Under the pieces are notes generated by a model. It was not told where the DNA came from and made no database searches. It was given only the letters and a program-made list of their open reading frames with translations. From the NCBI GenBank assembly GCA_031292775.1, contig JARLGN010000439.1:1-54692 (forward strand): 54,692 nt of DNA, written 5' to 3'. This stretch comes from Acidobacteriota bacterium (GTDB lineage: Bacteria; Acidobacteriota; Terriglobia; UBA7540). Each line of letters opens with the position of its first letter. Positions within the stretch are counted from its first letter, which is position 1. Of this stretch, positions 11,116 through 33,926 are shown piece by piece. A program made the position numbers and the translations under genes.

Positions 11116-11403
11116 TTGTAATTCCCCCCGTTCATCTATGTAATACTCAATCCTGAACAAAACTTTCAGACGAACCCCAAAAGGGGTCTCCGGTAGCTCA
11201 GTTTTTACGAAGAAATTGGGAAGTTCAGTTCAAAGGACTGACGAATTCAGGGTGGATTCGGAATAATGCCGATTCTTAATTTATTGAAAAATAAGGAAGA
11301 ACGAACTTTGATACGGATTCTGGGTCAAGGCGGTCAGGATTCCGAAATCAATCCGGTCGGCGATACACGTTTCAATCTGGCCATTTTTGCTTAGTTGCCA
11401 GTT

Positions 11404-11466
11404 CGCCTGGCACGATTCCCCGCCCGAGATACACTCCCCCAGATACCAATACTGGAATTCTGGCAG
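11404..11466. repeat. B-box copy 0 (diverged), about 180 nt upstream of the methyltransferase-1 start
   Basis: cctggcacgattccccgcccgagatacac matches copy 2 (17571-17599, cctggcacaacgcctcgcccgagatacac) at about 25/29 positions. aatact and ggaattctggca are also shared. Confidence 0.55.
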
Positions 11467-11649
11467 ATTTATTCCAAGAAACCCGGGAAACTTCGAAAAT
11501 CTTCTCGAGCAGCCGCCCATAAGGCATCGCTCTCCATAAAAGAACCTTTTTCTTTCCTCCAAGCCGTTAACTTGTCCCAAGAACCAGTAGTACGTCCCTA
11601 TAGGGGTATGGTTCGCCGTCCCCGGATGAAAGCTAGGAGGATCGCAGAG

Positions 11650-13179
11650 ATGGGAAGCCCGATACCAAATGATTTAACGACCGGGGAAGGCATCGTCAGG
11701 TTAAGCGGAATAGGACTCCGCCCGGACGTGGCAGGAGAAGAAAATGGGGCAACCGCAACCCCTGTGGGAGTGGGACGAGCGGAAGCGGCCAGTGTTCGCC
11801 TCATTACCACTGTGATTCAGACGGACTGCCTTGCGGGGCTTGACGGTCTGGAGAAAGGCTCAGTCGCTGCAATCGTTACGTCGCCGCCCTATAATATCGG
11901 GAAACAATATCAGGGGTCTGATGACAACAAAGATGACTATCAAAGCTGGATGCGCTCGGTTTTTGTCGCTTGCAAGCGAGCCTTGGCCGACAACGGGCAC
12001 TTCTTCCTCCAGGTGGGGGGCATTCCAAGCCGCCCCCTAATTCCGTGGGAAGTCATTACGCAAGCCCTCAGCGCCGGGTTTGTCCTGCAGAATCAGATTG
12101 TGTGGGTCAAAAGCGTGGCAATTAGGGAAAAGACTTACGGGCATTTCAAGCCTATAAACAGCAAGCGGTTTATGAACCAGACCCATGAGTTCATCTTCCA
12201 CTTGACCAACAAGGGAGAAACTTCAATCAACCGGCTGGCGGTGGGCGTCCCCTTCACTGACGAATCCAACATCAAGCGATTTGGGCATGAGAATAATCGA
12301 CGGTGCCGGGGGAATACCTGGTTCATCCCCTATGAGACGATAACCTCAAAGAAGAAGGGCTACAACCACCCGGCCGCCTTTCCCGTAGCCTTGCCCGAGA
12401 TGTGCATCAAATTGGCGGGAATCCCCCAAGGTTCTCTGGTTGTGGACCCATACGTCGGCACCGGAACTACGTTGGTAGCCTGCAAAAGACTCCAAATGAA
12501 CGGCATCGGATTTGATATTTCCCCCGAATACTGCAAGATGGCAGAAGAGCGTTTGATCGGTTTAGAACCGGCCACAGAACCAGCGATCCTTGTTGCCACG
12601 CTAACCCGTACCGCCCTCGGCGACACCGCTTCAATGATCCCGCCGAAGCAAGCAACGCCCCAGGCTTTCCTGGCGAACCCCGAAACCGAGATTCGGTTTT
12701 CCGGTTCGCCTTACCTGCGTAGGGTACCACCCACCTTCAGGTACGCCAATACTTGCCCGTGCTTGGAAGACGTCCCACTTGATCTCGGCGACCATCTTGA
12801 CGGCTTCGGGTTGATTTCCATCTTGCGAGAGACCAGATGCGGAGTAGTTGACCCACGGCCGTTCGACGATCAGTGGGCCAGGATCGTCCACAATCTCTGT
12901 GAGGCACGCGGAATACCGTTCAGATATGGACATATGGGGGACCGAGAACGGTTCCCGTCAAAGCTTCTGGGTAGCGTGGAGCGCGAGGACATCCCGGCGT
13001 TCTTTACTGGAACGCAGCCGGAAGGCAGATCGGCCGGACCCTTTCGGTTATCCGGATCGTTCGCTAGCGACATGGGCATGAGAACCTCGTGCCCAGCGGG
13101 TGTCGTATCGCTATTCTCGGAGACGGGGAAGTCCGAGTCCGGGAGTGGGCTGCCGAGGCCTGAGCAGGCGGCAAATTAG
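11650..13179 (+). CDS. DNA methyltransferase 1 (beta-class N4-C/N6-A, PF01555-like) with a long C-terminal extension
   Basis: Motif IV is IVTSPPYNIG. Downstream are HPAAFPVALPE and motif I VVDPYVGTGTTLVA (order IV then I, hence beta class). AGGAGG lies 9 nt upstream of ATG 11650; the ORF-track start 11395 overlaps the B-box. About 190 C-terminal aa are not MTase-like. Confidence 0.8.
   Translation: MGSPIPNDLTTGEGIVRLSGIGLRPDVAGEENGATATPVGVGRAEAASVRLITTVIQTDCLAGLDGLEKGSVAAIVTSPPYNIGKQYQGSDDNKDDYQSWMRSVFVACKRALADNGHFFLQVGGIPSRPLIPWEVITQALSAGFVLQNQIVWVKSVAIREKTYGHFKPINSKRFMNQTHEFIFHLTNKGETSINRLAVGVPFTDESNIKRFGHENNRRCRGNTWFIPYETITSKKKGYNHPAAFPVALPEMCIKLAGIPQGSLVVDPYVGTGTTLVACKRLQMNGIGFDISPEYCKMAEERLIGLEPATEPAILVATLTRTALGDTASMIPPKQATPQAFLANPETEIRFSGSPYLRRVPPTFRYANTCPCLEDVPLDLGDHLDGFGLISILRETRCGVVDPRPFDDQWARIVHNLCEARGIPFRYGHMGDRERFPSKLLGSVEREDIPAFFTGTQPEGRSAGPFRLSGSFASDMGMRTSCPAGVVSLFSETGKSESGSGLPRPEQAAN
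13054..13171. repeat. A-repeat copy 1 (inside the 3' end of methyltransferase 1)
   Basis: ggatcgttcgc..catgggcatgagaacc..gaagtccg..ggcctgagcaggcgg aligns colinearly with 17298-17412, roughly three quarters identical by eye. Confidence 0.6.
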
Positions 13180-13518: not shown

Positions 13519-14652
13519 TCAGCTACCCTCTGCACGATCCGACAAAGGACTCCAGTCCATGAACGGGATCGTTGATATGGTTCCTTTCGCCATTTCCCAG
13601 AGCTTTTCGTCCGGCTCAATACATGTGGCCGCCCAAATCCCCGAGGAACCGGTGAGGACCGGCAGCGCCACCGGAAAGCGGATTGAAAGCGTTGTGGTCG
13701 ACGCACTATCGGGAAACTGGTTCGGCAATTGGCTGAAGAGAGACTCTTCGAGAGATTCTGCAATCCTTTGGCGTGCCATCCCCGCATATTCAGGGTTCAA
13801 CTCCAGCCCAATGAACTGGCGATTATGCTGCACCGCAACTACTCCTGTTGTCCCCGAGCCGCAGAATGGGTCAAGCACGACGTCTCCCGGTCTGCTCCCT
13901 GCCAGGATGCACGGTTCAACCAGCTTCTGCGGGAAGACGGCGAAGTGAGCACCTTTATAATGCTGCACGGCTACGCTCCACACCGTTCGCTTGTTGCGGG
14001 TCTCCGAGATGGAGACAAAACTCTCCTGTCCTGTGCCCTTTTGACCGTTGCGCTTGCCGCCATAGCGGATGCGGCCAGTCCCGGCACGTTTGTCACTTGC
14101 CCATATCGCCGGTTCGGCGACGGCTCCGGAATCATAAAAATATTTTGCACTCTTGGTCAGCAGGAATACCTGTTCGTGGCACCGGGTGGGGCGTGTCTTC
14201 ACTGACTCCGGCATCGGGTTCGGCTTGTACCAGATTATCTCGGAGCGCAGCCACCAGCCGTCCCCACGCAGGGCGAGTGCGAGCTGCCATGGGATGCCCA
14301 CCAACTCTCCCGATTTGCAATTTTCCGGAACTGCCTTCGATGCGTAACTGTCCCCGATGTTCAGCCACAGCGTGCCGTCCGGTCGCAGGACCCTCCGGAC
14401 CTCACGAAACACCTCGACCATCTTTTCGACGTATCCAGTCGGGGTCGCCTCGTGACCGAGTTGGCCGTTGACGCCATAATCACGAAGGTTCCAGTAAGGA
14501 GGCGAAGTAACCACACACTGGACCGAATCTGACAGCATTGCTCCAAGCAGGTGCAGGCAATCCCCGACCCGCACCTCGAAAGTTGCTGCGACGGATTGTG
14601 GGCTGACGATTACCGGAGGGGCACTCCGCTCCAACTTTTGTAATTCCATCAT
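13519..14652 (-). CDS. DNA methyltransferase 2 (beta-class N4-C/N6-A, PF01555-like)
   Basis: Motif strings: VVTSPPYWNLRDYG, IIWYKPNPMPES, HFAVFPQKL and AGSRPGDVVLDPFCGSGTTGV. I prefer ATG 14652 (MMELQK, GGGAG upstream) over the ORF-track start at 14763. Confidence 0.85.
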   Translation of the reverse strand: MMELQKLERSAPPVIVSPQSVAATFEVRVGDCLHLLGAMLSDSVQCVVTSPPYWNLRDYGVNGQLGHEATPTGYVEKMVEVFREVRRVLRPDGTLWLNIGDSYASKAVPENCKSGELVGIPWQLALALRGDGWWLRSEIIWYKPNPMPESVKTRPTRCHEQVFLLTKSAKYFYDSGAVAEPAIWASDKRAGTGRIRYGGKRNGQKGTGQESFVSISETRNKRTVWSVAVQHYKGAHFAVFPQKLVEPCILAGSRPGDVVLDPFCGSGTTGVVAVQHNRQFIGLELNPEYAGMARQRIAESLEESLFSQLPNQFPDSASTTTLSIRFPVALPVLTGSSGIWAATCIEPDEKLWEMAKGTISTIPFMDWSPLSDRAEGS

Positions 14653-14976
14653 GGGCTCCCGAATTGAAATTGTCAGGAAAGACATGCGACTCACCGGGCG
14701 ATTGCGATACCGGCGGCGATGTGAGATAGCCGGGCGCCTGCCTGGAGGTGGTGCGATCAGCACCTGACAATGTTCAATACCGGTTTCTCAAAGAAAAATG
14801 GGTCGGGCGGAGATCCCATTGGCGGTGCAGTGGTGGGGCGGAAGATCGAAACCGGTCATAGACGGAAAACTCAGCGGTCCGAGGTTCCGCTGGTGTGCAT
14901 TCCAGGGCAACGCGGCAAGATCCCAAGATGAGACCGGACACTTATTCCAATGCCGTCACTTTTTGCCAGCTGGCCG

Positions 14977-15041
14977 TTCCCTGGCGCGATGTCCTGATTG
15001 AGATACACTGCCTCAGTTACTTCAATACTCGATTCCGGCAA
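14977..15041. repeat. B-box copy 1, about 600 nt upstream of the 15649 gene
   Basis: The core gagatacactgcctcagttacttcaatactcgattccggcaa (15000-15041) is 41/42 identical to 17590-17631. The left flank ttccctggc.. is also similar. Confidence 0.75.
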
Positions 15042-15648
15042 ATCCCTTTCGGGAATATCCGAGAGCTTTGCAAGTTTTTCGGGCAGCCCAACGGGAACTC
15101 GGGAGCCATGGGCAGGGACCCGACCATCCCTACCCTGGCCAAGCTGCCCCACTTGGCATGGTTCCCACCAAATCAGACTGTCTGGCCAACCACACGGTCG
15201 GGTTTCTTGTTTTCAGTGGTTTGGGTGACTCAGCCCAGCGCCGCGAGCAACCGGACTCCCAAAATCAAGGTCATGGTGCGGACAAGGGCAAACCTTTCCC
15301 GGACTAAGCTACCTGGAGTTGCGCCACCCCCCCCGAGGCCTACTGCCCGACCGATCCGCTCTTCCGGATCTCTCCAGCGCAATGGTGAGCGCTGCATGCC
15401 TGTTGTTCCCATCCTTTGAGATCGGCCCCTTACTTTTCAGTGGCTTATGGAAAGAATAGGAGAGTGCCGATTTTTTTCATTTTCTATGCCGGGCGCGGAG
15501 TATTTATCAGCACGGACTGTGCTCGACCTTCCAGGGTAGGGCACGTGGGATGGCGATCAGCAATGTCCCGCTCTCCCGAACAAGACATTGCGGTTCCAAA
15601 GCAACTGTCCTGTTGCCTTTCCGAACTCGACAACTCAAGGAGAACGCC

Positions 15649-17223
15649 ATGATGGATAAAATTCCTGCATATGACATGCCCGGGCTTCAAACTAGCGCAG
15701 AATCTGCACGAGTTCAGGGCGGATATGAGTCTCTCGATGTAAAGAGCACTAAGATGACCTATGAAGAACTAAATGGGGTCTTGGAAAAGCTCGCCACTAC
15801 TGTTGTTCAGACCCTCGACCAGATGGTTCCCTACTTGGCGAAAATGCAATCGCTGCTGAGCCAGCGTGGTGCGGACAGGAGGAAGGTTCTGCAACAGGCG
15901 GGGCTACCCGGCTGGACGCACTGGGCGAAGGCTTATGCCAGCAAGCTGGACCGCTCCCTGCGAACCATCCAGGACCGCATAAAGCAGTTCCGGGGGCAGC
16001 AGGCAGGCGGGACCACTGGCAAAACCAAAAGCGGCAGCACGGGCGAGCGCCTCAAGCTGGACAGCCGCCAGCAGGCTGCGCTGGTAAAGGCGCAAGTAGC
16101 GGCGAACGACCTCGTCGCCGCATTAAAAAGCGGCGCAGACTGGCAGACGCCACTCGCTGAATACCAGAAGGTCGCCGTCGCTCCGGCAAGGCTGGACACA
16201 TTCATGAATGCGCTTAGCCCGGAACCCGATTGGAAAAGCATCTTGAAGCAATTGGTAGATATGCTGGAGGAATGCGGCGGCGAGTTGCCCGTTCCGGTCA
16301 GGAACGCACTGCGTGCTGCGCAGAAGCTACTCGATGGCAAGGCCGACCAGCAGCAGGTGACTTCCGGAAAAGGGAAGGCTGGTGTCAAAGAGCAGAGCTG
16401 TGGGCAGAAGCCCAGAAACGACAGCACATGCTGCGTCGTCCCCCGGGAAGAAATGCCGAGCGGGGGTGCCCAGAAACTTTCCGTGTTGGTTAGGGGCACA
16501 GCATGTCCGACTGTTCCGGACCCTAAAGTAGAGTGTGGGCACGGAACGTTGGGCGCCGTATCCGTTCAGGGCTCCACTCCGGTGGCAGCAGTAATGGATG
16601 GCACCCCGCCCGAACAGACATCTGCTGAATATCAGAGTCGGAAGGCCGGGCAACAAAAGGAGTCCTGGCCGGGGAAGAAGCATGCCGAGCTAGCGGCCCA
16701 GGCAGCCAAGCCGGCCACCCCCCAGCCTGCCGCAACGCCAGCCCCGGAGCAAGGAACTAAGAAGAAAGCTCGGAAGGCGCCGGAGTCAGTTAAAACCAAA
16801 GTATGTCCTCCTGCCCTTAGCCCTGAGGAGGAAGAGCGCAAACAGGAAACGTCGGTTGCCGCCTCCAATTACCCTGGCCGCAGGCAAGGAGACTTTGTCC
16901 TTAATGAGAACCGCAAATATGAATATGACCCTGAGCTGGAGATGGCTGAAGCCGATGAAATCCAAGAAACCCAGCCCGGCAGTGAGCCGGTGCCTCCCAG
17001 GGAGCCGATGGCGAGCATCGAAAAATCGTATCGGGTGAAGCCCCGTAGCAAACCGGGATTCAAGACGGACTATTTGATTATCTGCGGCGGAGACAAGCAG
17101 CCATACGATGTATTCGACACCGAATGCGAAGCCAAAACGGTCTGCGAGAGTCTGAACAGTGGACTTGTGGGCAACATCGTGTCTCAGCACACTAACGCTC
17201 TATCAGCTGCACAGGCGGCGTAA
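15649..17223 (+). CDS. HTH (DUF3102-like) paralog X1: N-terminal HTH-like module, shared middle module, P/A/K-rich linker, small C-terminal domain
   Basis: AAGGAG lies 6 nt upstream of ATG 15649. LPGWTHWAKAYASKLDRSLRTIQDRI resembles the G.W..W......S.RTA.R signature. The middle 110 aa are homologous to 18279-19757. No enzymatic motif seen. Confidence 0.6.
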   Translation: MMDKIPAYDMPGLQTSAESARVQGGYESLDVKSTKMTYEELNGVLEKLATTVVQTLDQMVPYLAKMQSLLSQRGADRRKVLQQAGLPGWTHWAKAYASKLDRSLRTIQDRIKQFRGQQAGGTTGKTKSGSTGERLKLDSRQQAALVKAQVAANDLVAALKSGADWQTPLAEYQKVAVAPARLDTFMNALSPEPDWKSILKQLVDMLEECGGELPVPVRNALRAAQKLLDGKADQQQVTSGKGKAGVKEQSCGQKPRNDSTCCVVPREEMPSGGAQKLSVLVRGTACPTVPDPKVECGHGTLGAVSVQGSTPVAAVMDGTPPEQTSAEYQSRKAGQQKESWPGKKHAELAAQAAKPATPQPAATPAPEQGTKKKARKAPESVKTKVCPPALSPEEEERKQETSVAASNYPGRRQGDFVLNENRKYEYDPELEMAEADEIQETQPGSEPVPPREPMASIEKSYRVKPRSKPGFKTDYLIICGGDKQPYDVFDTECEAKTVCESLNSGLVGNIVSQHTNALSAAQAA

Positions 17224-17297
17224 TGGACCGCTGCCCCGAAAGTGGGTCAGCGATGGCCCGCCCCTGGCGCAGAGAGTCTGGGCGAACGAAGACACCT

Positions 17298-17412
17298 GGA
17301 TCGTCCGCCGGCAACATGGGCACGAGAACCTGAGGCCCTTGCGGGTTACATCGTTTTTGTCGGAAACGAGGAAGTCCGGGCGCAGGAGGGTGGCCCAGGC
17401 CTGAGCAGGCGG
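17298..17412. repeat. A-repeat copy 2 (intergenic)
   Basis: ggatcgtccgc..catgggcacgagaacc..gaagtccg..ggcctgagcaggcgg aligns colinearly with 13054-13171. Confidence 0.6.
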
Positions 17413-17566
17413 GGGGGATAATTGCTGCTGGGATGTTGCGCAAACGGCTCGGCAGGCAGGAATTGCTCAAAAGCGAGCGGAAGGGGTCAGTGGCACGGCG
17501 GCTGCCGCTTGAGGGGCATTGAGGAAGTCCGAGGGGGATGATCGCAGTATCCAACTTCGCACTGCA

Positions 17567-17631
17567 TTCCCTGGCACAACGCCTCGCCCGAGATACACGG
17601 CCTCAGTTACTTCAATACTCGATTCCGGCAA
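17567..17631. repeat. B-box copy 2, about 650 nt upstream of the 18279 gene
   Basis: gagatacacggcctcagttacttcaatactcgattccggcaa (17590-17631) has one mismatch to copy 1. Confidence 0.75.
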
Positions 17632-18278
17632 GTTCCGCCCAAAAACCTCTTGGGACGCCCACTGAACAAACATGTTGCGCTTGAAGCTGCAAGCAGCCGT
17701 GAGCCCTAATCTCGGTCTTGATGGTCAACATCGTCTGCTCCAGGTCGTCTCTGCCGCAGCAAGGGCATTCGCAAACTTCGGCGAGCCGCCAAGCGCCGGA
17801 GGGGTACCGCTCTTCTTTTTGCTGACCAATACTTCATTCGTTGTGTAAAATTCCACGCGACGTTAGCGTCACCACTTGCGGGTTTCCCCTCGTTCGGCAG
17901 CGTTCGGTCGAACTAGGATCCGAGCATGACATTGGGGATTTCAGCAATGGGGAGGAGCGGCTACTCTTAAAAGGTCCAGGCACGTGAGCCCCCTTCGCTG
18001 GAGTTGTGGGCGTTGATCTGGGCCTTGCCTGGGCGGGATTCGATACCGTGTGGCAAGTTGAAGTGGTGCCACAAATCGCGATGCTCATCGGCGCCTTGGT
18101 GCAGCGGAGCGAATTCCTTCTTTAGGCGAGGGGAGCTCAGTCGGTGCTGCCCGGTCAGCGGCGTAATGGCAGCGGGGGCATTGATGCCGGGATGCGGGGC
18201 GGATCCGAGCCAGGGATCCACCCGAGCCCCGATCGGGGCGATGGTCCTGGACCGGGGTGTCTGGAAAACGGAGGCTGC

Positions 18279-19757
18279 ATGGTCGATACAGCACGGGGGA
18301 GGCCCGGACCCGCGGACCAAGGTCCGGGAGTCGAGATCGCCCGCGACAGCGGAAGGGATCAGTGTGCCCACGCCATGGGCGACGCCGAGCTGTGCGCGTA
18401 CATCGCGGGAGCCCTTTCGCCGGTGAAGAGGATCCTGCGGGACATCCTCCCCTACCTCGCCGAGGCGCGGAGGCGGTTCGCGCAACCGGGGCGGCGGGTC
18501 CCGGTTCCGGGAAGACCGACCTGGGGAGAATGGGTCAGGCAGAGCCTTGGGATCAGCGACCGCCACGCCCGGCGGCTGCTGGCGGAGGTACGCGAGCCGC
18601 AGGGCGGCAGCGGGGATCCAAGACAGGTCAAGCTTGATGGTCACCAGCAAGCTACGCTCGCTAAGGCGCATGTGGCTGCGAACAACCTTGCGACCGCGCT
18701 GAAGAGCGGGGGAGATTGGCACCCAGCGCTGGCAGACTTCGAAATGATCGCCGTCGCCCCGGCGAGGTTGGAAACATACTTGAGCGCCCTGGAGCGCGAG
18801 ACCGATTGGAAGACTGTCCTGGTCAAGCTGGTATTTGCGCTGGAGCAGTGCGGCGACAGGCTGCCGGTCCCGGCCAAGGACGCCGTGAATGCTGCCAAAG
18901 AGGTGTTGGGGGGCAAGGCCGACCAGCAGCAATTGCCTTCCGAAAAACCGAAGGCTACCTGGGCGACAAAATCGCAGGGGCGAACAGCAGACAATAAGGA
19001 GAACACCCCCCCATGCGCTTTCCCCACCATCTCTTATCCTGGTGGCAAAGCACGACTGGCTCCTGCTCTGGTCAGCTTCATGCCTCCGCAAGGACGGTCG
19101 TACGTGGAGCCATTCGCAGGGCGAGGAAATGTCTTCTGGGCTGCCGCCTCCAGCCAACTTGGTTTCCAGCGATGGGCACTGAACGATATCCGCACGGCCC
19201 CCTTCTTCGAGGCCGTGCGGGACATCGGCGACACGATGGAGGTGCCCGTGAAGTCCCGTGAGGAGTACAGCCGGCAGCGGGAAGCCTTCGAGCAGGGTGA
19301 CCCCAAGGCAATCCTGTTGGAGCCATATTTTACGTTCGATGGAGATGGGTATGGACGTGGTTTGCAGGGAAAGAATGGTCCAACATTGGCTGGATACACC
19401 CGCACGCTACGGGTCTGTCATAGGCTGATGCACGCCACGAAGGCGATCATCACAGGTTGCGACTGGACGGAGTTCGACTGGTCATCGCTGACCCTCGACG
19501 ACTTTGTTTTCATCGACCCACCGTACCTCGGCAGTGATGTGCGGTCATATAAGGAAAAGGACCTCAACCATGAAGAGTTGGTTCGTTTTTTACTGGCGGC
19601 CAAGTTTAAGTGGATGTTCACCGAATACGCGCATGAACTATATTTCCGGGAGCTTGGCCAGCCTTTTTTCATAAGGGACATGCAGCTGAACGCCGTCAAC
19701 TTTCACGTGCGCGGGGGCAAGGAACGCCGCTTGGAATGCGTGTGGAAGAACTACTGA
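18279..19757 (+). CDS. Fusion X2: DUF3102-like HTH module, shared middle module and a Dam-type (D12 class) N6-adenine DNA methyltransferase
   Basis: The C-terminal half has YPGGKARLAPALVSFMPPQGRSYVEPFAGRGNVF (motif I) and FVFIDPPYLG (motif IV). The start at 18279 (MVDTA.., GGAGG upstream) is chosen because it aligns with MSDTA.. of the 23591 gene. Confidence 0.8.
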   Translation: MVDTARGRPGPADQGPGVEIARDSGRDQCAHAMGDAELCAYIAGALSPVKRILRDILPYLAEARRRFAQPGRRVPVPGRPTWGEWVRQSLGISDRHARRLLAEVREPQGGSGDPRQVKLDGHQQATLAKAHVAANNLATALKSGGDWHPALADFEMIAVAPARLETYLSALERETDWKTVLVKLVFALEQCGDRLPVPAKDAVNAAKEVLGGKADQQQLPSEKPKATWATKSQGRTADNKENTPPCAFPTISYPGGKARLAPALVSFMPPQGRSYVEPFAGRGNVFWAAASSQLGFQRWALNDIRTAPFFEAVRDIGDTMEVPVKSREEYSRQREAFEQGDPKAILLEPYFTFDGDGYGRGLQGKNGPTLAGYTRTLRVCHRLMHATKAIITGCDWTEFDWSSLTLDDFVFIDPPYLGSDVRSYKEKDLNHEELVRFLLAAKFKWMFTEYAHELYFRELGQPFFIRDMQLNAVNFHVRGGKERRLECVWKNY

Positions 19758-19873
19758 AACTTCGGATGAATAGGGAAGTAAGAGCGGTCTTCCGGGCGTG
19801 CTTTTGGTAATGGTGCTGCATTACGGGAGCTGATCGCCGGACCAGCACGAACAAAGGATGTTCAGGATTGGGA

Positions 19874-20626
19874 CTATTGAGGCCCGGTGAGAGTCGGTTC
19901 CTTCACACCCTTAGGTTTCTTGCGCCTCTTGCGGTGCTCGCGGATGATTCGCGGCCAAATGAATAACGCGTTAGTGATTTCAGGGCTCTTTGCCATCCTC
20001 CTCAAACGGCTGAGGTACTGCATCACAGGGTCCGGGAACTTCACCAGCGCCGTTTCCCAAAGGCTGCCAGCATGAATTGGGATTTTGGCATCCGCAAACT
20101 TCTGCTCCAACGAGCGCGGCAGCCATGCCCATAGTGGGTCGTCTTTGCTAGTCTTCAGGGCAGAAAGCCTGGAATTCTTCCTGTCAAGATACTCGACTAA
20201 CTCCTCGTTCTTGGCCTCCGGGTGCCTGCGAAGGTACTCGATTGCGTAGAAGCGCGCCCGGTCCTCGCCGAGCTCCACGCCAAGGTGGAAGAGATCGTGT
20301 CCCGCAAGGATGCCGCGATAGGAGGCCACCTTGGCGAAGTTCAACAGATACCGCTTGAAGCACGCCAACAATTCCACGTTCTCCTCTGTCACGGGCTGCG
20401 TGAAATGCACGAACAGCCGCTTCCTGTCTTCGCCCATCTCGGCAAGGACCCGCCGCTCGGTCTCAGGCCGAAATAGGCGCGCCCGTCCGAATTGAAACTC
20501 CTCCCGCACCTTTTTCGTGATTTCTTTCTTTCGTTGCTCATCCATGTTCGCGTCGGACCCCTGCCTGAATATGGACCGCAATTCAATCTCGATTCTCTCC
20601 ATCAGTTTCTGCCTAGGCCCCTTCAC
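19874..20626 (-). CDS. Hypothetical protein, convergent with the Dam-like gene
   Basis: 250-aa ORF with normal composition (alternative ATG at 20602). No confident motif; only weak strings GHDLFH and DDPLWAWLPRSLEQK. Basic C-terminal tail. Confidence 0.55.
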   Translation of the reverse strand: MKGPRQKLMERIEIELRSIFRQGSDANMDEQRKKEITKKVREEFQFGRARLFRPETERRVLAEMGEDRKRLFVHFTQPVTEENVELLACFKRYLLNFAKVASYRGILAGHDLFHLGVELGEDRARFYAIEYLRRHPEAKNEELVEYLDRKNSRLSALKTSKDDPLWAWLPRSLEQKFADAKIPIHAGSLWETALVKFPDPVMQYLSRLRRMAKSPEITNALFIWPRIIREHRKRRKKPKGVKEPTLTGPQ

Positions 20627-20828
20627 ACGTCTAAGTTGACTCCCATATGCAACGCCAACCCAGCGAAGAACTTAGCACAACGGCCCGCGCATTGCATCCT
20701 GACATCGGCCGTGCGAGTAACCATGATCGGGCTGGCAAAATGTATTCTGGAGGGGCGAAGGAAGGACTTGGCTGGGCGCTGGGCTTGCACCGAGTCTTTT
20801 GCACGTACCCTCAACTCGCGCGTCCTGA

Positions 20829-21149
20829 ATGAGTTGCCGCCCTGCACTTGCAGGAAATCACTCTGAATTCGCAACACCATCCAAAAAGCGCATAATCCGC
20901 AGCACGAACGAACAATATCTGACAGTCGCAGAAGTTGCACAGATGCTGGACGTCAGCCGGGACACGATACGGCGGATGTTCGCGGAGGAGCCGGGGGTCG
21001 TCAACGTCGGGGCGCAGAGGAGGCACGCCAGCCGACCCTACCGGATTCTGCGGATTCCCCGAAGCGTGCTCGAACGGGTTCTGGCTGCCCGTGCAGTCAA
21101 GGGCATCACGAGCGCTCAAAACGACGGAGAACTGAAGCAGAGCGAGTAA
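20829..21149 (+). CDS. Helix-turn-helix DNA-binding protein (excisionase/AlpA-like)
   Basis: YLTVAEVAQMLDVSRDTIRRMFAEEPGVV...YRILRIPRSVLERVL is a typical MerR/excisionase-type HTH. The gene is divergent from the 250-aa gene. Confidence 0.65.
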   Translation: MSCRPALAGNHSEFATPSKKRIIRSTNEQYLTVAEVAQMLDVSRDTIRRMFAEEPGVVNVGAQRRHASRPYRILRIPRSVLERVLAARAVKGITSAQNDGELKQSE

Positions 21150-21183
21150 GGTCAGGGGCTGGAAAGACTAAAGGAGATTCGGC

Positions 21184-21453
21184 ATGACGGGCAAAAGAGT
21201 TTCGGCAGAACAGGTGAAGACGATGGCGGTGTTCACGACCGAACCCCAAGGATGGTTTGATAGCAACTCCATCCAGCGCAAGACGGAGATACCTGACAAC
21301 AGTCTCCGGCATTTCCTGTTCGCATTCTTAAGGCTCGGATTGCTGGAACGTTTAGAAGTGCATGGCGGATACCGTTACCGGCTTTCGCCCATGGCAGAGA
21401 CGCAGCCGTATTTTCAGCGCCTGCAAGCGGCGGGAGCACCGATGAAGCCGTAA
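21184..21453 (+). CDS. Small winged-helix-like protein
   Basis: AAAGGAG lies upstream of the ATG. LRHFLFAFLRLGLLERLEVHGGYRYRLSP resembles the recognition helix plus wing of wHTH regulators. Confidence 0.5.
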   Translation: MTGKRVSAEQVKTMAVFTTEPQGWFDSNSIQRKTEIPDNSLRHFLFAFLRLGLLERLEVHGGYRYRLSPMAETQPYFQRLQAAGAPMKP

Positions 21454-21571
21454 GCCCACAAGTTCTGTAGACAAGCAAGGAATGTAAGTCAGGTAGCGTG
21501 GTTTCACAAAAAGTGAACTCACACGACCAGGGAGAACTGTTGCCCAAGTGCGAGACTTGAAAGGAGAAGCG

Positions 21572-22270
21572 ATGGAACCAGAAGTAATACCCACAGTCGA
21601 TGAAGTTGGGCTTGATGCAGTGCAGACCATGAAAGCAACCTCTGGAGCAATCCCGGAAGTTGAATACGCTCAAGCGCCCGCGGCAACGGTAGGCATTAGT
21701 TTTGCGCTTACCAATCTTAGAAATGCCGACACGGACGCATTCTTCGAGAAACCGGCGAAGCTGCCTTATTTGGCGACCACAAGCCTGAAGCAATCTGGCG
21801 AGCCCGTTCTGCCTGCTCCGCCTTCATCCGGCACGGCCGGATTGCTGAGCAGCCCTGTTCTGAAGAAAGGCGATTGGCACGGGTTGGCGAAAGCGTTCCT
21901 CAATGGGCTGGGCGAATCGGCAGACGCAGTGTTTCTTGGCTTGGCTGTGCATGATTTTGCCTACGCTCTTATTCAATTCGCTTTCGAGATCGGGAAGGTG
22001 TATGCGGCCATCGACGGAATAATCGCTCATCCTCCCTGCGTCGGGCAGGACAACGGACCCGATAACACAGAAGCTGTGGATCCTGCCCCTTGTCTTTGGG
22101 CTGAGGTGGCAAATGCAGAAATAAGGAAAGAACTGGAGACAATCTTCACGGGGTCCACCCAACCATTTTCGGAGCGCCGCCCTTGCGGTCCATTTTCAAT
22201 GTCGAGCATTGAAGTCCCCCCGAAAAGCGGGTTGCCCATCGACATGGACGATTGGGTGGAATTCGAATGA
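21572..22270 (+). CDS. Hypothetical protein
   Basis: AAAGGAG lies 5 nt upstream of ATG 21572; the ORF-track GTG at 21548 is less likely. Ordinary composition, acidic C-terminus, no recognised motif. Confidence 0.5.
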   Translation: MEPEVIPTVDEVGLDAVQTMKATSGAIPEVEYAQAPAATVGISFALTNLRNADTDAFFEKPAKLPYLATTSLKQSGEPVLPAPPSSGTAGLLSSPVLKKGDWHGLAKAFLNGLGESADAVFLGLAVHDFAYALIQFAFEIGKVYAAIDGIIAHPPCVGQDNGPDNTEAVDPAPCLWAEVANAEIRKELETIFTGSTQPFSERRPCGPFSMSSIEVPPKSGLPIDMDDWVEFE

Positions 22271-22481
22271 AGGGATGATCGTCTCACGTAGCAGGTTTTT
22301 GCTGGCCGTCCGGTCAAGGGCAATTCCAGCGACCGGAAGGGCGGCGAATTGAAGCAGGGCCAAGAACGGGCTGACGGGACCCGCTGCATCTGGGTCACAG
22401 ATCCGGCAGAAGAGACCGCCGGAAGTCAGGCTCAATAACTGAAACCGGGGCAGTACCAAAACCAAATAGGAGGTTCCTTGT

Positions 22482-23351
22482 ATGGAAAGTCCAGAGCTAA
22501 TGCAACCGCAAGTGACGCCGCCCTCTGTTTTGAAGCTGGCGGTGATGAGTACTGACCGTCAATTCGACACAAACGGAATCCAGACCTTGCAACCGGCCAG
22601 TCCAGCCGAAACCTCCGGACTGAGTCCGCAGGTTTTCCCGCAGCCCGCAACGGGCAGGCCCAGTCCGAAGGGCTGCACAACCGACCAGTTGTTCGAAATC
22701 GTAATTGAAGTCGCCCGGCGGTTCCGCACCGCCAAGGCGGATGTGGCGGAACACAAGGGTTATATCCTGCGCCTCAAGAATGATGTGTTCAAAGTCAGCT
22801 TTGGTTCGGTAGGCGTACATGTGCCCGTGACGTACAAAACCGAGGATGGCGTCCCGGCGACGAAGAAGATGCGCTGGAACGAGTTCTGCGAAACCCAATT
22901 CTGCGTGAGCGCGGATTGGATAAACCGCATCTGCGGTGGCAAAGCGGAAGGCAGGGTCGCGAGCCAAGCCGCCAAGCCTGAGAGCGAGAAGGTCCTCTAT
23001 AAGCACGGCTACCAGGCAGCGAAGGCGGAGTTGCAGGCACCGCTTAAGGCCGCCGCCGAAATGCAGGCAACGCTCGAGGGGCGCCTCGCCGAACTGGAGA
23101 CGGAAAACAAGAAGTTACACGGCACCACAGGCGGGCGCCAGCAGCATGGTCAGGTGAGTGGGGGCAAGGTAGTCGCGAAACTCGAGGCGCAGGTAGAGGG
23201 CCTCAAGGAATTCGCGGACCTTGCGACCGAAGCCTTTGAAATTATCAACGGGGACTTTGGGAGCCGTCTGATGGGTAACGTTGACGGGAACCGCCTGGTT
23301 GCCATTGCCAAGAAAGCGCTCGCGATGAAGGGAAAGCTCAAGGTCTGCTGA
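22482..23351 (+). CDS. DUF3102-like HTH paralog with a C-terminal coiled-coil
   Basis: TAGGAGG lies upstream of the ATG. ARRFRTAKAD...KKMRWNEFCETQFCVSADWINRIC aligns with ARRRFAQPG...PTWGEWVRQSLGISDRHARRLL of the 18279 gene. The C-terminal AELQAPLKAAAEMQATLEGRLAELETENKKL is coiled-coil-like. Confidence 0.6.
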   Translation: MESPELMQPQVTPPSVLKLAVMSTDRQFDTNGIQTLQPASPAETSGLSPQVFPQPATGRPSPKGCTTDQLFEIVIEVARRFRTAKADVAEHKGYILRLKNDVFKVSFGSVGVHVPVTYKTEDGVPATKKMRWNEFCETQFCVSADWINRICGGKAEGRVASQAAKPESEKVLYKHGYQAAKAELQAPLKAAAEMQATLEGRLAELETENKKLHGTTGGRQQHGQVSGGKVVAKLEAQVEGLKEFADLATEAFEIINGDFGSRLMGNVDGNRLVAIAKKALAMKGKLKVC

Positions 23352-23590
23352 AGCATGACGGTTCAGGGCAAGAAGAATTGCGGCCTGAGATCCATCTTGC
23401 CCTGAATGCGGAGTATTCGGTGCCAGCTGAGTCATGCAAGGCAAGACACGGATGTGGGGCAGCCAGCGAAGTGGCCGAAGGCGATGCTGGTTGGGATGCG
23501 GAGCTGGACGAAGGGTGTGCTGAAGAAACGAGTATTAGGTGAATTAGAGTCCCTGATATTGACCCAGGGTTTTAAGCGACTGAAGGATGC

Positions 23591-25720
23591 ATGAGCGACA
23601 CAGCCCATGACAAATCGGAACCTCCGGACAAATGTCCGCGGGTTGAGGCCGTCGGAGAGAGCGAGAAGGCGCAGCACGCTCAATCCATGGGCGATGGTGA
23701 ACTGTGTGAGTTCATCACGAATGCCTGGTCTCCGGCGAAGAAAATCCTGCGGGACAACCTCGCCTATATTGCCGAAGCTCGAAAACGGTTTGCGCAGCCC
23801 GGACGGCGAGTCCCGGTAGCGGGAAAACCGACCTGGGGAAATTGGATTGAGCAGAACCTCGGAATCAGTGACCGCCACGTCCGGCGTCTCCTGGCCGGGA
23901 AGACCGCACCGCAGAAGCGCCAGGAGAAGAAAACTGAATCGCGAGTTGAGGTCGAGTCAGCAGGAATCACCCTTGGCAGCAAGGGCCAGGAGATGGCGCG
24001 AAGGCTTCCAGAGGGGGATCTTGAAGCGGGCAAGAAAATCGGGGCGGCAAAGCCTGATGCTCACATCGACTGCCCAGACAGCCCGTTGGCCGCGCCTGAA
24101 CACGTGAAGACCCTGGGCAATGGGGATATTGAAACCCTGGCCAACTTCTGGCGACAGGTATTCGACCCCCTGAATCACGCACAGCGACGTGACCTGCTCG
24201 TCCGGTTCTTCGGACAGATTCCGGTGGAACACATCGCCGATATTAGGGCCGCAATTGAGTGTAGCCCGGTTCATGCGGACAGTGCTGGCGCTGCGGGTGA
24301 GGCGGAAGAGATGTCGGGGCTGACGGCAGTAGGAACTCAAGAGCAATGCAGTCAGGCCTCGAACGACTCTGGGTCGGCGACGGCCGGCCAAGATTTAGCA
24401 GCCCTGGGTCAAAGCAGTGAAAACAGAATAGGAAGTGAGTTCCTGATTGTCCGGGCGAACGCGCGGAACATCCCGCTGGCGGACAACTCCGTGCAGTGCG
24501 TCGTGACCAGCCCACCTTATTTCGGGCTGCGGAAGTACGCGGGGGAGCAGGAGTTGGTGTGGCCAGTATCCCAAAATCGTGGGGTAGTGCGCTGCAATCG
24601 TGGTGACCACTCGTGGGGCGAGACCATTGTTGTAAAGACTTCCGACACTTACAACGTCGGGTTCAATGAGCGATGCGGTAACGCCAGCGGGAAGCGTAAG
24701 CAAGAGGCCTCGAGTTATGGACAGGTTTTGAAGGGGTGCTTCTGCCAACGCTGCGGCGCTTGGCGTGGAGCCTTCGGTCTTGAGCCGACCATCGCGATGT
24801 ACGTCCAGCACAGCGTTGAGATACTACGGGAGATTCGGCGGGTGCTGAGGCCGGATGGGGTGTGCTTCTGGAATATTGGGGATAGTTACGCGAATACATC
24901 ATCGAGGGCCGGTGGGCAAGATAAACAATCGGACCAACAGACGGTTGAAATGCGTGGGATAACAAAGCCGATTCCTGACGGCCTCAAGCCCAAAGACCTC
25001 TGCCTGATACCGCAAAGAATAGCCCTGGCTGCGCAACAGGATGGTTGGTGCGTAAGGGACGTCATCATCTGGCAAAAGCCGAACCCCATGCCGGAAAGCG
25101 TCGGGGACCGCTGCACGCGGTCATACGAACCCATCCTGATGCTCACGAAGTCGGAACAGTATTACTGGAACAAGGAAGCCATTAAGGAGCCGAGCAAATA
25201 TCCCAACGACACCCGCAAGTCCAGGAGCCGCTCTGGTCAAAAAAGGCTGCCAACCGAGGAGGTTGCTGGAATCCGACCGGGAAGCAAAACCTACCCGTTC
25301 CGCAACCCCCGCAATGTTTGGACATTCCCGACGCAGCCCTATAGTGGAGCGCATTTTGCCACATTCCCGGAGCAACTTCCCCGCCGCTGCATCCTGGCAG
25401 GGAGCAGACCGGGGGATGTAGTTCTCGACCCGTTCGGAGGCTCTGGCACCACAGCCAAGGTCGCAGCTGCACTGGCACGCCGCGCAGTGTCAATCGACCT
25501 CGCTTACCACGACATCGCCCGCGAGAGAGTCGCCGCGGGATGCCGTCAGACGAACGCCCGGGAAGAAACCTCCGCTGAGCCCCTCAGTGTCACCGTAAAT
25601 CAACGGGAAGCAGCTGGGGGTACGCTGCAGGGGGCAGATGTTCCTATGCCAAGCATCCCCGAAAGCGTGCCGGCATTCGGCGAGGAAAGCCAAGGGATGG
25701 GGATTCCGTTGCCGTGCTAG
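23591..25720 (+). CDS. Fusion X3: DUF3102-like HTH module plus beta-class DNA methyltransferase 4 with a Cys-rich insertion
   Basis: The N-terminal 105 aa are about two-thirds identical to the 18279 gene. Catalytic strings: VVTSPPYFGLRKYAG, CFCQRCGAWRGAFGLEPT, IIWQKPNPMPES, HFATFPEQL and AGSRPGDVVLDPFGGSGTT, the last nearly identical to MTase 2. Confidence 0.85.
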   Translation: MSDTAHDKSEPPDKCPRVEAVGESEKAQHAQSMGDGELCEFITNAWSPAKKILRDNLAYIAEARKRFAQPGRRVPVAGKPTWGNWIEQNLGISDRHVRRLLAGKTAPQKRQEKKTESRVEVESAGITLGSKGQEMARRLPEGDLEAGKKIGAAKPDAHIDCPDSPLAAPEHVKTLGNGDIETLANFWRQVFDPLNHAQRRDLLVRFFGQIPVEHIADIRAAIECSPVHADSAGAAGEAEEMSGLTAVGTQEQCSQASNDSGSATAGQDLAALGQSSENRIGSEFLIVRANARNIPLADNSVQCVVTSPPYFGLRKYAGEQELVWPVSQNRGVVRCNRGDHSWGETIVVKTSDTYNVGFNERCGNASGKRKQEASSYGQVLKGCFCQRCGAWRGAFGLEPTIAMYVQHSVEILREIRRVLRPDGVCFWNIGDSYANTSSRAGGQDKQSDQQTVEMRGITKPIPDGLKPKDLCLIPQRIALAAQQDGWCVRDVIIWQKPNPMPESVGDRCTRSYEPILMLTKSEQYYWNKEAIKEPSKYPNDTRKSRSRSGQKRLPTEEVAGIRPGSKTYPFRNPRNVWTFPTQPYSGAHFATFPEQLPRRCILAGSRPGDVVLDPFGGSGTTAKVAAALARRAVSIDLAYHDIARERVAAGCRQTNAREETSAEPLSVTVNQREAAGGTLQGADVPMPSIPESVPAFGEESQGMGIPLPC

Positions 25721-28663: not shown

Positions 28664-30859
28664 ATGGATGCCACTACGGACCGGGAACGGATCAAGGCGT
28701 GGGTGAATGCCGGCAAGCAGCTCGTGATGGTGGCCAAGTTCGGGAAAGGCGCCGTGCTGGATTTCGATAATTTCGAGGCGTGCAAGGCGCTGGGGTTCGA
28801 CGAGCAGTGGCTCCAGGGAATGCTCAGGGTGGACACGCCTTCCGGCCCCGGCCATTTCCATTGCTACCTGCCCTGGAGCGCAGCCCTGGATGCCTTCCCC
28901 AATGGCGCCGCGAATGCGGATGCGTTTGACGCCAGTGGGAACCTGGTCGGCGAACTGAAGCTCAACAACTCGACCGTCGCCGCCCCCGGCAGCCTTAGAT
29001 TCAACTCGGAGTGTCCAGGCAAAGTGGAGGGAGCCTATATTCCCGTCACAGACCAAAATGCGGAGCTTTGCCCCAACGCCCCGGCAGTTGCCGCGTGGTT
29101 CAGGGCCCACGGCAAGGCCACCAAGCCTAAGCCGGAATTCACGGGCCGCAAAGAGCCGTGGAAGTTCCACCCCGAGTTTGATCAAGACGAGTTTCTTAAT
29201 CACAACCTATGCTCGGGACTCGACGGCGAAGGGGAAGGTTGGATAGAGGACGGCGTCTATCACCTTGTCCCGGACGAATGCCCATTGTGCGGGCAAGAGG
29301 CAAGACAAAATACCACCCTGGCGGCGGCCGTCACCAAGTTCATCTTCTCCGGCACGTGCTATGGATTCATCTGCCACCACTGCGGGGTGAATTCCAGGGC
29401 AGACTTCGAAGGAAAGATGGCGGAGGACCACCTAGATTGGGAGCCTTGGCATGGTTACATCTATCGGCACGACAGCGATACGCTCCTGTTTGCCGACGCC
29501 GCAAGGGCGGGCTTGGAGGTGGAGATGGTGGGCTGCTCAGATCACGATGAAACCTCTGCTGGCACGACGACATGCCCAGAGCAACCTGCGGAGCAACGCT
29601 CGCCAGTTATACATGAGGAGAAGCCCGCCAGGCTCCGGTTGGCAGAGATGCCCGAATCCGCCATGTATGGCTGGATTGCAGACAAGGCGAGGGAACTCCA
29701 GGTCCCGCTGGGGTTCGCCTATGCTGCGACACTCACGGCCTTTGCTCCCTGCATTACCACCTTCCCCCGCCAGATTCGCCCCACCCTTTACACCGCGCTG
29801 ATCGGGCCCGTCCACTGCGGCAAGACGGAGACGCTTAAGAGGGTGCGTGCAAGCATTCAATACCCCGACCCCGAGACGGTCAAGACCACGGTTCCCGGGT
29901 CCGACCGCGGGCTCATCAATATCTTCGGCGGCAAGAAGAAGGACAAGAAAGACGAGGCCTTTGGACTGGAAGTCCCAAAGACCAGGCTGCTGGTTCAGGA
30001 CGAGCTTCGCAATACCTTTGCCAAGGCCATGATCCAGGGGAGTAGTCTCCCCAGCACGCTGTGCACCCTGTTTTCGGAAGACGAGGCCGGGACCGCGGAC
30101 AAGACGGGGGAACACATAGCACTGGTCAGGCTCAGCATCCTCGGCGCATTGAAGGCCGAAGATGCCGATGACTTCGCAGAAGTGTTCGGGAAAGGGGCAA
30201 CGTCCGGCCTGTATGACCGCTTTGTGTTCGCCGTCGGGAGCAAGGGATGGCAATACTTCGACTGGGCGCCGCCAGCCGAGCCTTCATTCTGTTGCCCCTC
30301 CCGGCCCGAAATTCCCGCCACGGTCTTTCAGATGCTGGTTGCGTGGGGAGCGCACAATACCGACCGTCATCGGCTGGGGGAGATAGCCTTCCGGGTCGCC
30401 TACATCTCGGCGGCGGCAAATCAAGACAAATTCATTAGCGAAGCATGCATGGCTGCTGCATTGGAGTTTGCCGAATGGCAGGAGGCTATCCGGGGAAGGT
30501 ATAAGCCGGGATTGGGGGAAGGCGACAGGGCCCGGGCAACGGCAGCCATACTCAATGTTCTGGAGGCGGTCCAGGGCAAATGGATCCAGTGGCGTGAGGT
30601 GGCTACCAAAAAAAACTGGTACCGCAAGTTTGGGGCTGCGGTCATAAGCCAGGCCCGGGACTCATTAGCACGGTCAGGAATGACGGTCGAGGAGACTGAG
30701 GAAAGCGAGAACGGCAGGCAGCGCCGGACGGGCGCGTGCGCTTGCGCACGGCAGAAGATGAGGCTTAGGCCCAGTTGTCACTTTTGGGCCAGTTGTCAGT
30801 CCAGTTGTCACTTGGTTGTCAAAGAAAATAAAGGAGTTAAGTCAGTAGTCATGGTATGA
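28664..30859 (+). CDS. Primase-helicase: Prim-Pol domain plus a DUF3987/P-loop (phage/plasmid primase P4-type) domain
   Basis: Prim-Pol strings: DATTDRERIKAW, AVLDFD, VDTPSGPGHFHCYL and NSTVAAPGS. P-loop: Walker A LIGPVHCGKTE and Walker B-like LLVQDEL. The last 40 codons read through a DNA repeat array, so the real end may be earlier. Confidence 0.8.
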   Translation: MDATTDRERIKAWVNAGKQLVMVAKFGKGAVLDFDNFEACKALGFDEQWLQGMLRVDTPSGPGHFHCYLPWSAALDAFPNGAANADAFDASGNLVGELKLNNSTVAAPGSLRFNSECPGKVEGAYIPVTDQNAELCPNAPAVAAWFRAHGKATKPKPEFTGRKEPWKFHPEFDQDEFLNHNLCSGLDGEGEGWIEDGVYHLVPDECPLCGQEARQNTTLAAAVTKFIFSGTCYGFICHHCGVNSRADFEGKMAEDHLDWEPWHGYIYRHDSDTLLFADAARAGLEVEMVGCSDHDETSAGTTTCPEQPAEQRSPVIHEEKPARLRLAEMPESAMYGWIADKARELQVPLGFAYAATLTAFAPCITTFPRQIRPTLYTALIGPVHCGKTETLKRVRASIQYPDPETVKTTVPGSDRGLINIFGGKKKDKKDEAFGLEVPKTRLLVQDELRNTFAKAMIQGSSLPSTLCTLFSEDEAGTADKTGEHIALVRLSILGALKAEDADDFAEVFGKGATSGLYDRFVFAVGSKGWQYFDWAPPAEPSFCCPSRPEIPATVFQMLVAWGAHNTDRHRLGEIAFRVAYISAAANQDKFISEACMAAALEFAEWQEAIRGRYKPGLGEGDRARATAAILNVLEAVQGKWIQWREVATKKNWYRKFGAAVISQARDSLARSGMTVEETEESENGRQRRTGACACARQKMRLRPSCHFWASCQSSCHLVVKENKGVKSVVMV

Positions 30860-33679: not shown

Positions 33680-33926
33680 CGACAGGGATAACGCCCGCCG
33701 CTCATTCCCTGAATCTCGCAAAGGGAGCCGATTTCAGCCATGCCTCCAGTGGGTCTATGGTTCTGGTGCCGCAGACTGGTGCAGAAGGTTCCACGAGATT
33801 ATTGACCACCTTTGCGGGGCTATTTGGATGACGGTCTGATTCTGCGGCTGAGCCCGGGAGTCGTCCCGGGCAGTGGAGTGCTTTAGCTTGAGTGATTTTC
33901 TCGCCAGCCTTGTGGGTGCCGGCAGC

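Follow-up and report, generated by a model that had tools for sequence, protein, structure and literature searches.

Three genes on an integrated mobile element of a soil Acidobacteriota bacterium, here named A, B and C, encode members of one undescribed protein family of integrative, self-replicating Terriglobia (Acidobacteriota) elements. The element lies in contig JARLGN010000439.1 of assembly GCA_031292775.1, and "the window" refers to the whole stretch of DNA that was analysed (54,692 nucleotides). The three proteins have in common a head, which consists of a basic N-module of about 85 residues with a conserved Gly/Pro/Arg loop, often followed by an all-helical block of about 100 residues. 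This head is portable, its sub-modules recombine, and it is repeatedly fused or adjacent to base-modifying enzymes in mobile elements. We propose, with a probability of roughly 0.5, that the head is a DNA-binding tether that keeps the modifying enzymes of the element on DNA and possibly also regulates their genes. The three genes and their modules are given below. The family hidden Markov models (HMMs) were built from foreign sequences only, which avoids circularity; P-numbers denote related proteins and L-numbers the loci of relatives.

15649-17223, + strand: gene A, 524 aa, with an A-type N-module, a middle block, a long region rich in Pro/Ala/Gln/Lys and a small part at the C-terminus
15739-16020, + strand: N-terminal module of A, A-type, aa 31-124 (A-type HMM 1.4e-47)
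16051-16344, + strand: middle block of A, aa 135-232, a predicted five-helix bundle (HMM of 15 foreign A-type blocks, E=1e-46)
18279-19757, + strand: gene B, 492 aa, with a B/C-type N-module, an A-type middle block and a D12/Dam alpha-class N6-adenine methyltransferase
18357-18611, + strand: N-terminal module of B, B/C-type, aa 27-111 (B/C-type HMM 2e-39)
18627-18920, + strand: middle block of B, A-type, aa 117-214 (A-type middle HMM E=1e-37)
19023-19757, + strand: D12-class methyltransferase domain of B, aa 249-492 (PF02086 1e-10, TIGR00571 1.4e-13, phrog_56 2.5e-24)
23591-25720, + strand: gene C, 709 aa, with a B/C-type N-module, a helical region of the C type, a beta-class methyltransferase (N6_N4) and a short tail
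23669-23944, + strand: N-terminal module of C, B/C-type, aa 27-118 (B/C-type HMM 6e-43)
23945-24460, + strand: C-type region of C, aa 119-290, common to the non-enzymatic proteins P0007, P0195 and P0225 and to the C5 methyltransferase fusion of L019
24473-25585, + strand: N6_N4 beta-class methyltransferase domain of C, aa 295-665 (PF01555 9.8e-48)

BLASTP with composition-based statistics aligned residues 1-108 of B and C without gaps at 60% identity (E=7e-37), and residues 6-281 of A with residues 11-265 of B at 37% identity (E=4e-44). The initial annotation of this DNA had claimed that the first 105 residues or so are common to B and C, and that A and B have another, middle module of about 110 residues in common. 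Both similarities were confirmed, the middle block of A and B extending over about 100 residues at 56% identity. At the DNA level, B and C are 72% identical over 312 nt (18272-18583 and 23584-23895, starting 7 nt before both ATG codons), and A and B are 70% identical over 333 nt (16052-16380 and 18628-18956) that span the middle block. Shine-Dalgarno-like sequences (AAGGAG, GGAGG or GAAGGA) precede the start codons of all three genes. The ratio of nonsynonymous to synonymous substitution rates (dN/dS) was 0.34 for the N-module of B and C and 0.21 for the middle block of A and B, with synonymous divergence (dS) of 0.8 and 1.3, respectively. Thus, the shared modules are old and constrained and did not arise by recent duplication.

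It could be argued that nothing functional is shared, that the similarity reflects low complexity, recent local duplication or an assembly artefact, and that the methyltransferases B and C are ordinary orphans whose extensions are junk. Compositional bias is indeed present in the first 30 residues and the linkers, and several relatives in long-read metagenome assemblies are frameshifted. We regard this idea as highly improbable and already refuted: E-values of 1e-37 to 1e-44 were obtained under composition correction, 273 related cluster representatives have conserved motifs, dN/dS of 0.2-0.36 with dS of 0.8-1.3 indicates old copies under purifying selection, and nucleotide identity of just 70-72% excludes an assembly duplicate.

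Gene A has no catalytic domain and no match in Pfam, PHROG, NCBIfam or PADLOC, and its orthologues in L002, L004, L008, L010 and L012 are 51-72% identical. The N-terminal module had been ascribed to the two methyltransferases; it is present in B and C, but also in the non-enzymatic A as a divergent subtype. Since an HMM of foreign B/C-type heads only matches A residues 33-116 at E=3e-8, the N-terminal module occurs in all three genes. Its sequence in the A subtype is QRGADRRKVLQQAGLPGWTHW…LDRSLRTIQ, as compared with QPGRRVPVPG.PTWG.W…LGISDRH.RRLL in B and C. At the other end, A-like proteins (P0006, P0012, P0021, P0116 and P0166) have a conserved C-terminal tail, …P(Q/R)H(I/V)NPQ.AAQSAA, which in A (17180-17223) reads …SQHTNALSAAQAA. 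By analogy with the Ala-Ala ending of ssrA-type degradation tags, this tail may be a degron or a docking peptide.

In gene B, the N-module is laid out as a long helix, a QPGRRVPVPGRPTW loop and a helix-turn-helix (WGEWVRQSLGISDRHARRLLA). The catalytic body scored 42.3 bits against PF02086 MethyltransfD12 (Pfam cut-off 22), and its motif order, FAGRG (aa 279) followed by DPPY (aa 413), is that of the alpha class. Because the TIGR00571 score (51 bits) is under the equivalog-level cut-off of 115, B is a family member and not a Dam equivalog. Orthologues of B are found in L001 (56-75% identity), in L017/L018 (95%) and as P0156 (63%, with PF02086). In a census of the family, the A-type middle block followed A-type N-modules in 79 of 86 proteins and B/C-type N-modules in 5 of 78, among them B and its orthologue P0156. 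Since B combines a B/C-type N-module with the middle block that normally accompanies the A type, it is, as judged from these sequence comparisons, a rare chimera of two head subtypes. In ENA assembly ERZ25039509, a frameshift divides the B orthologue of L001 (10001-11390), and likewise the A orthologue of L002 (110-1590), into two called genes; these reflect either sequencing error in the long-read assembly or true pseudogenes.

The catalytic body of gene C belongs to the beta class, with 163.4 bits against PF01555 N6_N4_Mtase (cut-off 26.7) and the opposite motif order, SPPY (aa 307) followed by FGGSG (aa 615). The earlier assignment of B to the alpha class and C to the beta class is therefore borne out by both the Pfam matches and the motif orders. 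P0180, a stand-alone enzyme, matches the body of C with 68% identity. For the head of C (aa 1-243/262), identity is 65-71% with the non-enzymatic P0195, P0225 and P0007, and 72% with the head of L019, which follows a C5 methyltransferase. This is direct evidence that one head has acquired more than one partner. Among 5.8 billion clustered proteins, no other shows the full-length combination seen in C. We considered whether the C-type region is a diverged A/B middle block and rejected this: only a mixed HMM that included C-like sequences spanned C, and the HMM of A-type middle blocks did not match C, even when the search space was set to a single sequence. Within the catalytic domain of C, about 70 residues after SPPY (aa 323-392, 24557-24766) have no counterpart in M2, a head-less beta-class methyltransferase of the same element. 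With its many Cys and His residues (…CNRGDHSW…CFCQRCGAW…), the segment looks like a zinc-binding insert.

An exhaustive HMMER search for the head family returned 273 cluster representatives at E<=1e-3, of which 132 had E<=1e-10 and 39 had E<=1e-30; a word-indexed search with the three heads returned four fragments only. The species-representative genome set contained 4 matches, all in Terriglobia or Acidobacteriaceae metagenome-assembled genomes, and metagenome contigs supplied a further 42 loci. No relatives of the head family were found in IMG/VR viral contigs, GenBank phages or PLSDB plasmids. When A and the heads of B and C were compared with Pfam-A, PHROGs, NCBIfam and PADLOC, no family scored above threshold, and no Pfam domain was recorded on the head among the relatives. 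Nearly all of the 273 representatives are unnamed; where the sources do give names, head-only members are called "hypothetical protein" and enzyme fusions have generic methylase names. The architecture is therefore not that of a common, already characterised methyltransferase family: it occurs in soil metagenomes, with no entry in the family libraries and no informative name.

Among the best 148 relatives, the head is joined to a C5 DNA_methylase in 7 members, to MethyltransfD12 in 2 members besides B, to PF05869 Dam in 2 members and to an AlkB-like 2OG-Fe(II) oxygenase (2OG-FeII_Oxy_2) in 1 member; the remaining members have no known domain. The C5 enzymes and P0012 (a protein with a DPPY motif and no Pfam match) carry the head at the C-terminus, and the D12, Dam, N6_N4 and AlkB-like proteins carry it at the N-terminus, P0244 being a further fusion of head and N6_N4. 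Counted by locus, the head-bearing open reading frame is a C5 methyltransferase of about 500 aa with a C-terminal head in 21 of 58 loci. In P0190, P0213 and P0236, only the last two helices of the middle block are kept before the enzyme. Split forms were found as well. In L008 the head protein is directly followed by an N6_N4 gene, in L028 a D12 gene is followed by a head protein that starts within 4 nt, and in L016 a C5 gene, a 62-aa gene and the head protein follow one another, with AlkB-like and stand-alone DUF5131 genes nearby. The modular shuffling proposed from the three genes alone thus extends to four methyltransferase families and an AlkB-like oxygenase, with the head at either end of the enzyme.

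Head genes adjoin a tyrosine integrase in L010, L012, L042 and L001 and a serine recombinase in L008; a recombinase of one of these two types also lies beside the head gene in L035. Where the A-like form stands alone, it is often the gene closest to the recombinase. The replication genes nearby vary among L008, L010, L012, L042, L035 and the window (D5_N primase-helicase, PolA, AAA_25 helicase or PrimPol). In L035 (10880-13743), genes for an ATP-dependent DNA ligase and Prok-E2_B/ThiF (ubiquitin-like conjugation) lie directly downstream of a C5-head fusion, which is an unusual cargo. In the window, the 289-aa gene between B and C (22482-23351; …MRWNEFCETQFCVSADWINRICGG; …VPVTYKTEDGVPATKKMRWNEFCETQFCVSADWINRICGG) was tried as a fourth head and not accepted (hhalign E=0.021, 2% probability). 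A segment of its protein resembles the head loop and helix-turn-helix, and a very divergent head is possible.

Since the head is found at either end of four methyltransferase families and of an oxygenase, a role in catalysis or in sequence recognition by the enzyme is unlikely. This independence of position, together with DNA as the common substrate, argues for an autonomous tethering domain and not a catalytic accessory. We propose that recombination repeatedly moves the head onto enzymes that act on DNA bases and leaves it alone in proteins like A. By holding the methyltransferases on DNA, the tether would allow the genome of the element to be modified fast and fully at several specificities, which would shield the element from restriction in a new host. 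Through the same helix-turn-helix, the head could also control transcription of the genes that encode it, and stand-alone proteins like A could be DNA-bound regulators or hubs via the same head. DNA binding, tethering, targeting to the element's own DNA and the anti-restriction benefit are inferred. The initial annotation had suggested a possibly targeted modification system in place of ordinary orphan methyltransferases, which is so far conjectural; no binding site, partner or restriction enzyme was identified.

To model the head, a fragment of B (residues 29-265) was predicted using AlphaFold with a 48-sequence alignment, which gave a mean pLDDT (predicted local distance difference test) of 74.5 and a pTM (predicted template modelling score) of 0.37; with a five-sequence alignment, the pLDDT was 48.8. 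The pTM is consistent with two domains that lack a fixed relative orientation. The predicted elements of the fragment are a 34-residue helix (7-40), the conserved loop (41-53), two helices (54-62 and 66-77) separated by a three-residue turn "GIS", and a five-helix bundle (93-183) with block-mean pLDDT of about 72-97, mostly above 83. The segment LG(I/V)SxRxVxRLL fits the classical helix-turn-helix (HTH) pattern. In three members, sub-threshold Pfam matches to HTH_23, HTH_28, HTH_29 and Rv2175c_wHTH fall exactly on this part of the head, the HTH_23 match scoring 20.7 bits (below the cut-off of 24.6), and HTH_11, HTH_23, HTH_28 and HTH_29 each match 4 of 43 members. That these weak matches reflect an extra C-terminal HTH in some tails was ruled out by their position on the head's own helix-turn-helix. 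The mean net charge is +7.6 for the N-module, +5.1 for the 37 residues of loop and helix-turn-helix, and -1.6 for the middle block. Since basic charge and a helix-turn-helix point to DNA as the likely ligand, DNA binding by the predicted head is plausible.

Several results weigh against a DNA-binding tether. Most family members have no enzyme at all. Elements that otherwise differ widely have almost the same recognition helix, SDRHVRRLL; this would not be expected of element-specific operators, and a conserved partner or non-specific binding fits better. The regions upstream of B and C have no repeat in common that would indicate element-specific targeting, a conserved non-coding block found upstream of A and B (described below) is absent upstream of C and in all 16 of the related loci searched, and no DNA target of the head was identified. 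No HTH family was matched above threshold, Foldseek found no match in the PDB or BFVD at E<=0.001, and the head profile found nothing significant among PDB sequences (best E=0.047). The pTM of the model is only 0.37, and an interaction surface of the coiled-coil kind is an equally good reading of its long first helix.

This last feature would suit a protein-protein adaptor or oligomerisation module, an explanation that we consider quite unlikely. The heads would pair with one another (A as the scaffold, B and C as the clients) or dock on a replisome or host factor, thereby bringing several modifying enzymes together at replicating or entering DNA. There are three paralogous heads in one element and two adjacent head proteins in L002 and L028, and a 34-residue first helix with a helical bundle provides typical interaction surfaces. 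The near-invariant loop and "recognition" helix across diverse elements would suit a conserved partner, head genes lie near primase-helicase genes in L006 and L046, and the conserved tail of A-like proteins is a possible docking or degradation signal. However, nucleic acid is the ligand suggested by the strong basic charge and the helix-turn-helix pattern, no partner was identified, and the adjoining replication genes differ (PrimPol, D5_N, PolA or AAA_25), which argues against a single conserved replisome partner. A combined version, to which we likewise give a low probability, is that the head is a docking module for a multi-enzyme DNA-modification complex on the replicating or newly entered DNA of the element, where A would be a DNA-bound scaffold and the methyltransferases of different specificity, and the AlkB-like oxygenase in relatives, would be its clients. 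In that case, the targeting of methyltransferases coupled to replication would have a counterpart on bacterial mobile elements.

If the head binds DNA, it may act mainly as a transcriptional autoregulator in the style of M.SsoII and M.Ecl18kI, with the enzyme not targeted and A as the stand-alone regulator of an early operon of the element; we consider this unlikely. M.SsoII and M.Ecl18kI are C5 methyltransferases in which a separate helix-turn-helix region binds an operator in their own promoter and times expression, so a regulatory region that binds DNA has a precedent among methyltransferases (PMC3978073, PMC2760811). As proposed for the head, that region is small, folds separately, is joined to the methyltransferase by a flexible linker and lies outside catalysis (PMC3978073, PMC2760811). 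The stand-alone head proteins, typically encoded by the first gene beside the integrase, occupy the usual place of a regulator, and the predicted helix-turn-helix, its sub-threshold Pfam matches and the conserved 70-nt block about 600 nt upstream of A and B would fit as well. On the other hand, the SsoII-type enzymes belong to restriction-modification pairs with the operator between the R and M genes, and neither a restriction gene nor an operator was found here. No neighbour of the head genes matched a restriction enzyme or defence model, although unrecognised endonucleases are possible (the gene at 19874-20626 is without any match), and no restriction gene was recognised beside B or C. B and C also have no operator-like repeat in common upstream despite their near-identical recognition helices. 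The head constitutes a different, larger family (about 85 to 190 aa) with no above-threshold Pfam HTH match, the head and the SsoII region not having been compared directly. It is found at either terminus of four methyltransferase families and an oxygenase, and mostly without an enzyme. Its C-terminal position on C5 enzymes and the retention of its recognition helix across unrelated elements are both unlike the SsoII type.

The conserved non-coding block, of 70 nt, occurs in three copies on the + strand (11406-11446, 14977-15046 and 17567-17636), upstream of M1 (a head-less methyltransferase gene), A and B. Its pattern is CCTGGCAC…GAGATACAC..CC.CAG.TAC..CAATACT.G.ATTC.GGCA, the core of which is expected 0.02 times by chance. 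The copies of A and B show 83% identity across 70 nt, and each is situated about 600-640 nt ahead of the respective start codon. Terminator-like hairpins (15180-15203 and 17798-17816) follow the A and B copies by about 135-160 nt. The block could be a promoter or operator, or specify a short transcript. Because it is absent at C and in the relatives, it does not track the B/C head. Its reading as a sigma-54 promoter (TGGCAC…) is not supported: two copies have the -12 GC shifted by one base, and the third lacks it. Rejected as an operator was the 15-mer TGTGAGATTCGGCAG, found at 10 of 16 C5-head genes: it is the coding start GTG AGA TTC GGC AGC (M/V-R-F-G-S), that is, methyltransferase motif I.

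The usual view of orphan methyltransferases on mobile elements is that they are free-standing enzymes. In their catalytic bodies, B and C are standard members of the ordinary phage and plasmid orphans (Dam/D12 and N6_N4), with motifs intact, but 250 aa in B and 290 aa in C are added at the N-terminus and come from a family without a library entry. In ParB/Srx domains the fold is alpha+beta, with nuclease/NTPase activity, whereas the head is predicted to be all-helical and has no PF02195-type/ParB Pfam match. What it has in common with the ParB-methyltransferase fusions of phages and plasmids (e.g. Bacillus cereus Bce_0392) is the arrangement, in which orphan adenine or N4/N6 methyltransferases of mobile elements are fused to an accessory domain that interacts with DNA (PMC5512222). 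In the polyvalent proteins of phages and conjugative elements described by Iyer, Burroughs, Anand, de Souza and Aravind in 2017, domains including methylases are likewise shuffled promiscuously, and many of the domains lack a name and are specific to the elements (PMC5512222). A polyvalent protein has 2-15 effector domains and enters by injection or transfer together with the DNA, whereas here each protein has at most one catalytic domain and no virion or conjugation proteins occur among the element open reading frames examined. Since there is no restriction partner or operator, ParB fold, multi-effector polypeptide, or virion or transfer context, the head belongs to none of the SsoII-type, ParB-fusion or polyvalent systems. 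The theme of an accessory DNA-interacting domain on mobile-element methyltransferases is already known; within it, the head is a candidate new domain family that reference libraries could take up.

The repeated attachment of the head to four unrelated methyltransferase families and an AlkB-like oxygenase, also as a separate neighbouring gene, suggests a domain that is generally useful to the DNA-acting enzymes of these elements. If the head tethers or co-ordinates the enzymes, this would explain how the DNA of an element with five methyltransferases is fully protected, and if it tethers, it would represent a portable DNA-tethering part. We found nothing relevant in the literature on methyltransferase-rich elements in Acidobacteria, and the family adds to the very sparse knowledge of the mobile elements of Acidobacteriota, a phylum that is dominant in soil and poorly studied.

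The integrated mobile element that carries A, B and C occupies about 9.6-35 kb of the chromosomal window. The flanking chromosomal genes encode a peptidase, a fucosidase, a permease, an aldehyde dehydrogenase and many MacB/FtsX transporters. In addition to the three head genes, the element contains the following features.

9610-9698, - strand: tRNA-Leu(taa), at the left end of the element (ARAGORN and Rfam)
9717-10856, - strand: tyrosine integrase, at the left end of the element (PF00589 1.3e-16)
11395-13179, + strand: M1, head-less beta-class methyltransferase (PF01555 1e-45)
13519-14763, - strand: M2, head-less beta-class methyltransferase (PF01555 3e-51)
19874-20626, - strand: 250-aa gene, convergent with B and 117 bp apart from it
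28664-30859, + strand: PrimPol/DUF3987-like primase-helicase
31283-32419, - strand: HTH_36 initiator-like gene, with iterons inside the annotated span
32831-33433: 200-aa gene, with homologues in the elements of several relatives
33873-34877, + strand: beta-class methyltransferase, the fifth of the element

The element thus has five DNA methyltransferase genes (M1, M2, B, C and 33873-34877), four of the beta class and one of the alpha class. No restriction endonuclease, capsid, tail or conjugation genes were recognised among the element open reading frames examined. The right end, between 34877 and 36077, was set by gene content only, and BLASTN of the tRNA-Leu/integrase junction against the whole window gave no convincing direct repeat of an att site, the best match being 23 nt inside gene C. 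The gene at 19874-20626 has no match in any library used and no homologue in related loci. Its tail-to-tail layout with B is as expected of a cognate restriction gene, and nothing supports that identity. Because the 200-aa gene at 32831-33433 has homologues in several head-gene elements, these elements appear to form a loose family.

An iteron array (31471-31670, about 5 copies of 22 nt, CAGTCATCCGGGATGACTGGGG) lies within the HTH_36 initiator-like open reading frame, and nested inverted repeats (30782-30965) lie directly downstream of the gene for the primase-helicase; the replication origin of the element is probably made up of these two features. A C-terminal extension of M1 (12709-12942, aa 439-516) has a sub-threshold match to DUF5131, the phage Gp37/Gp68 family (E=0.0014, 18.6 bits, cut-off 28.9). 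The catalytic domains of M2 (- strand) and C (+ strand) are homologous, with 43% amino acid identity, and carry inverted DNA segments. One pair (13845-13911 and 25388-25454) is 67 nt long and 84% complementary, and a second pair (14207-14263 and 25039-25095) is 57 nt long, so the 11 kb between them could in principle be inverted.

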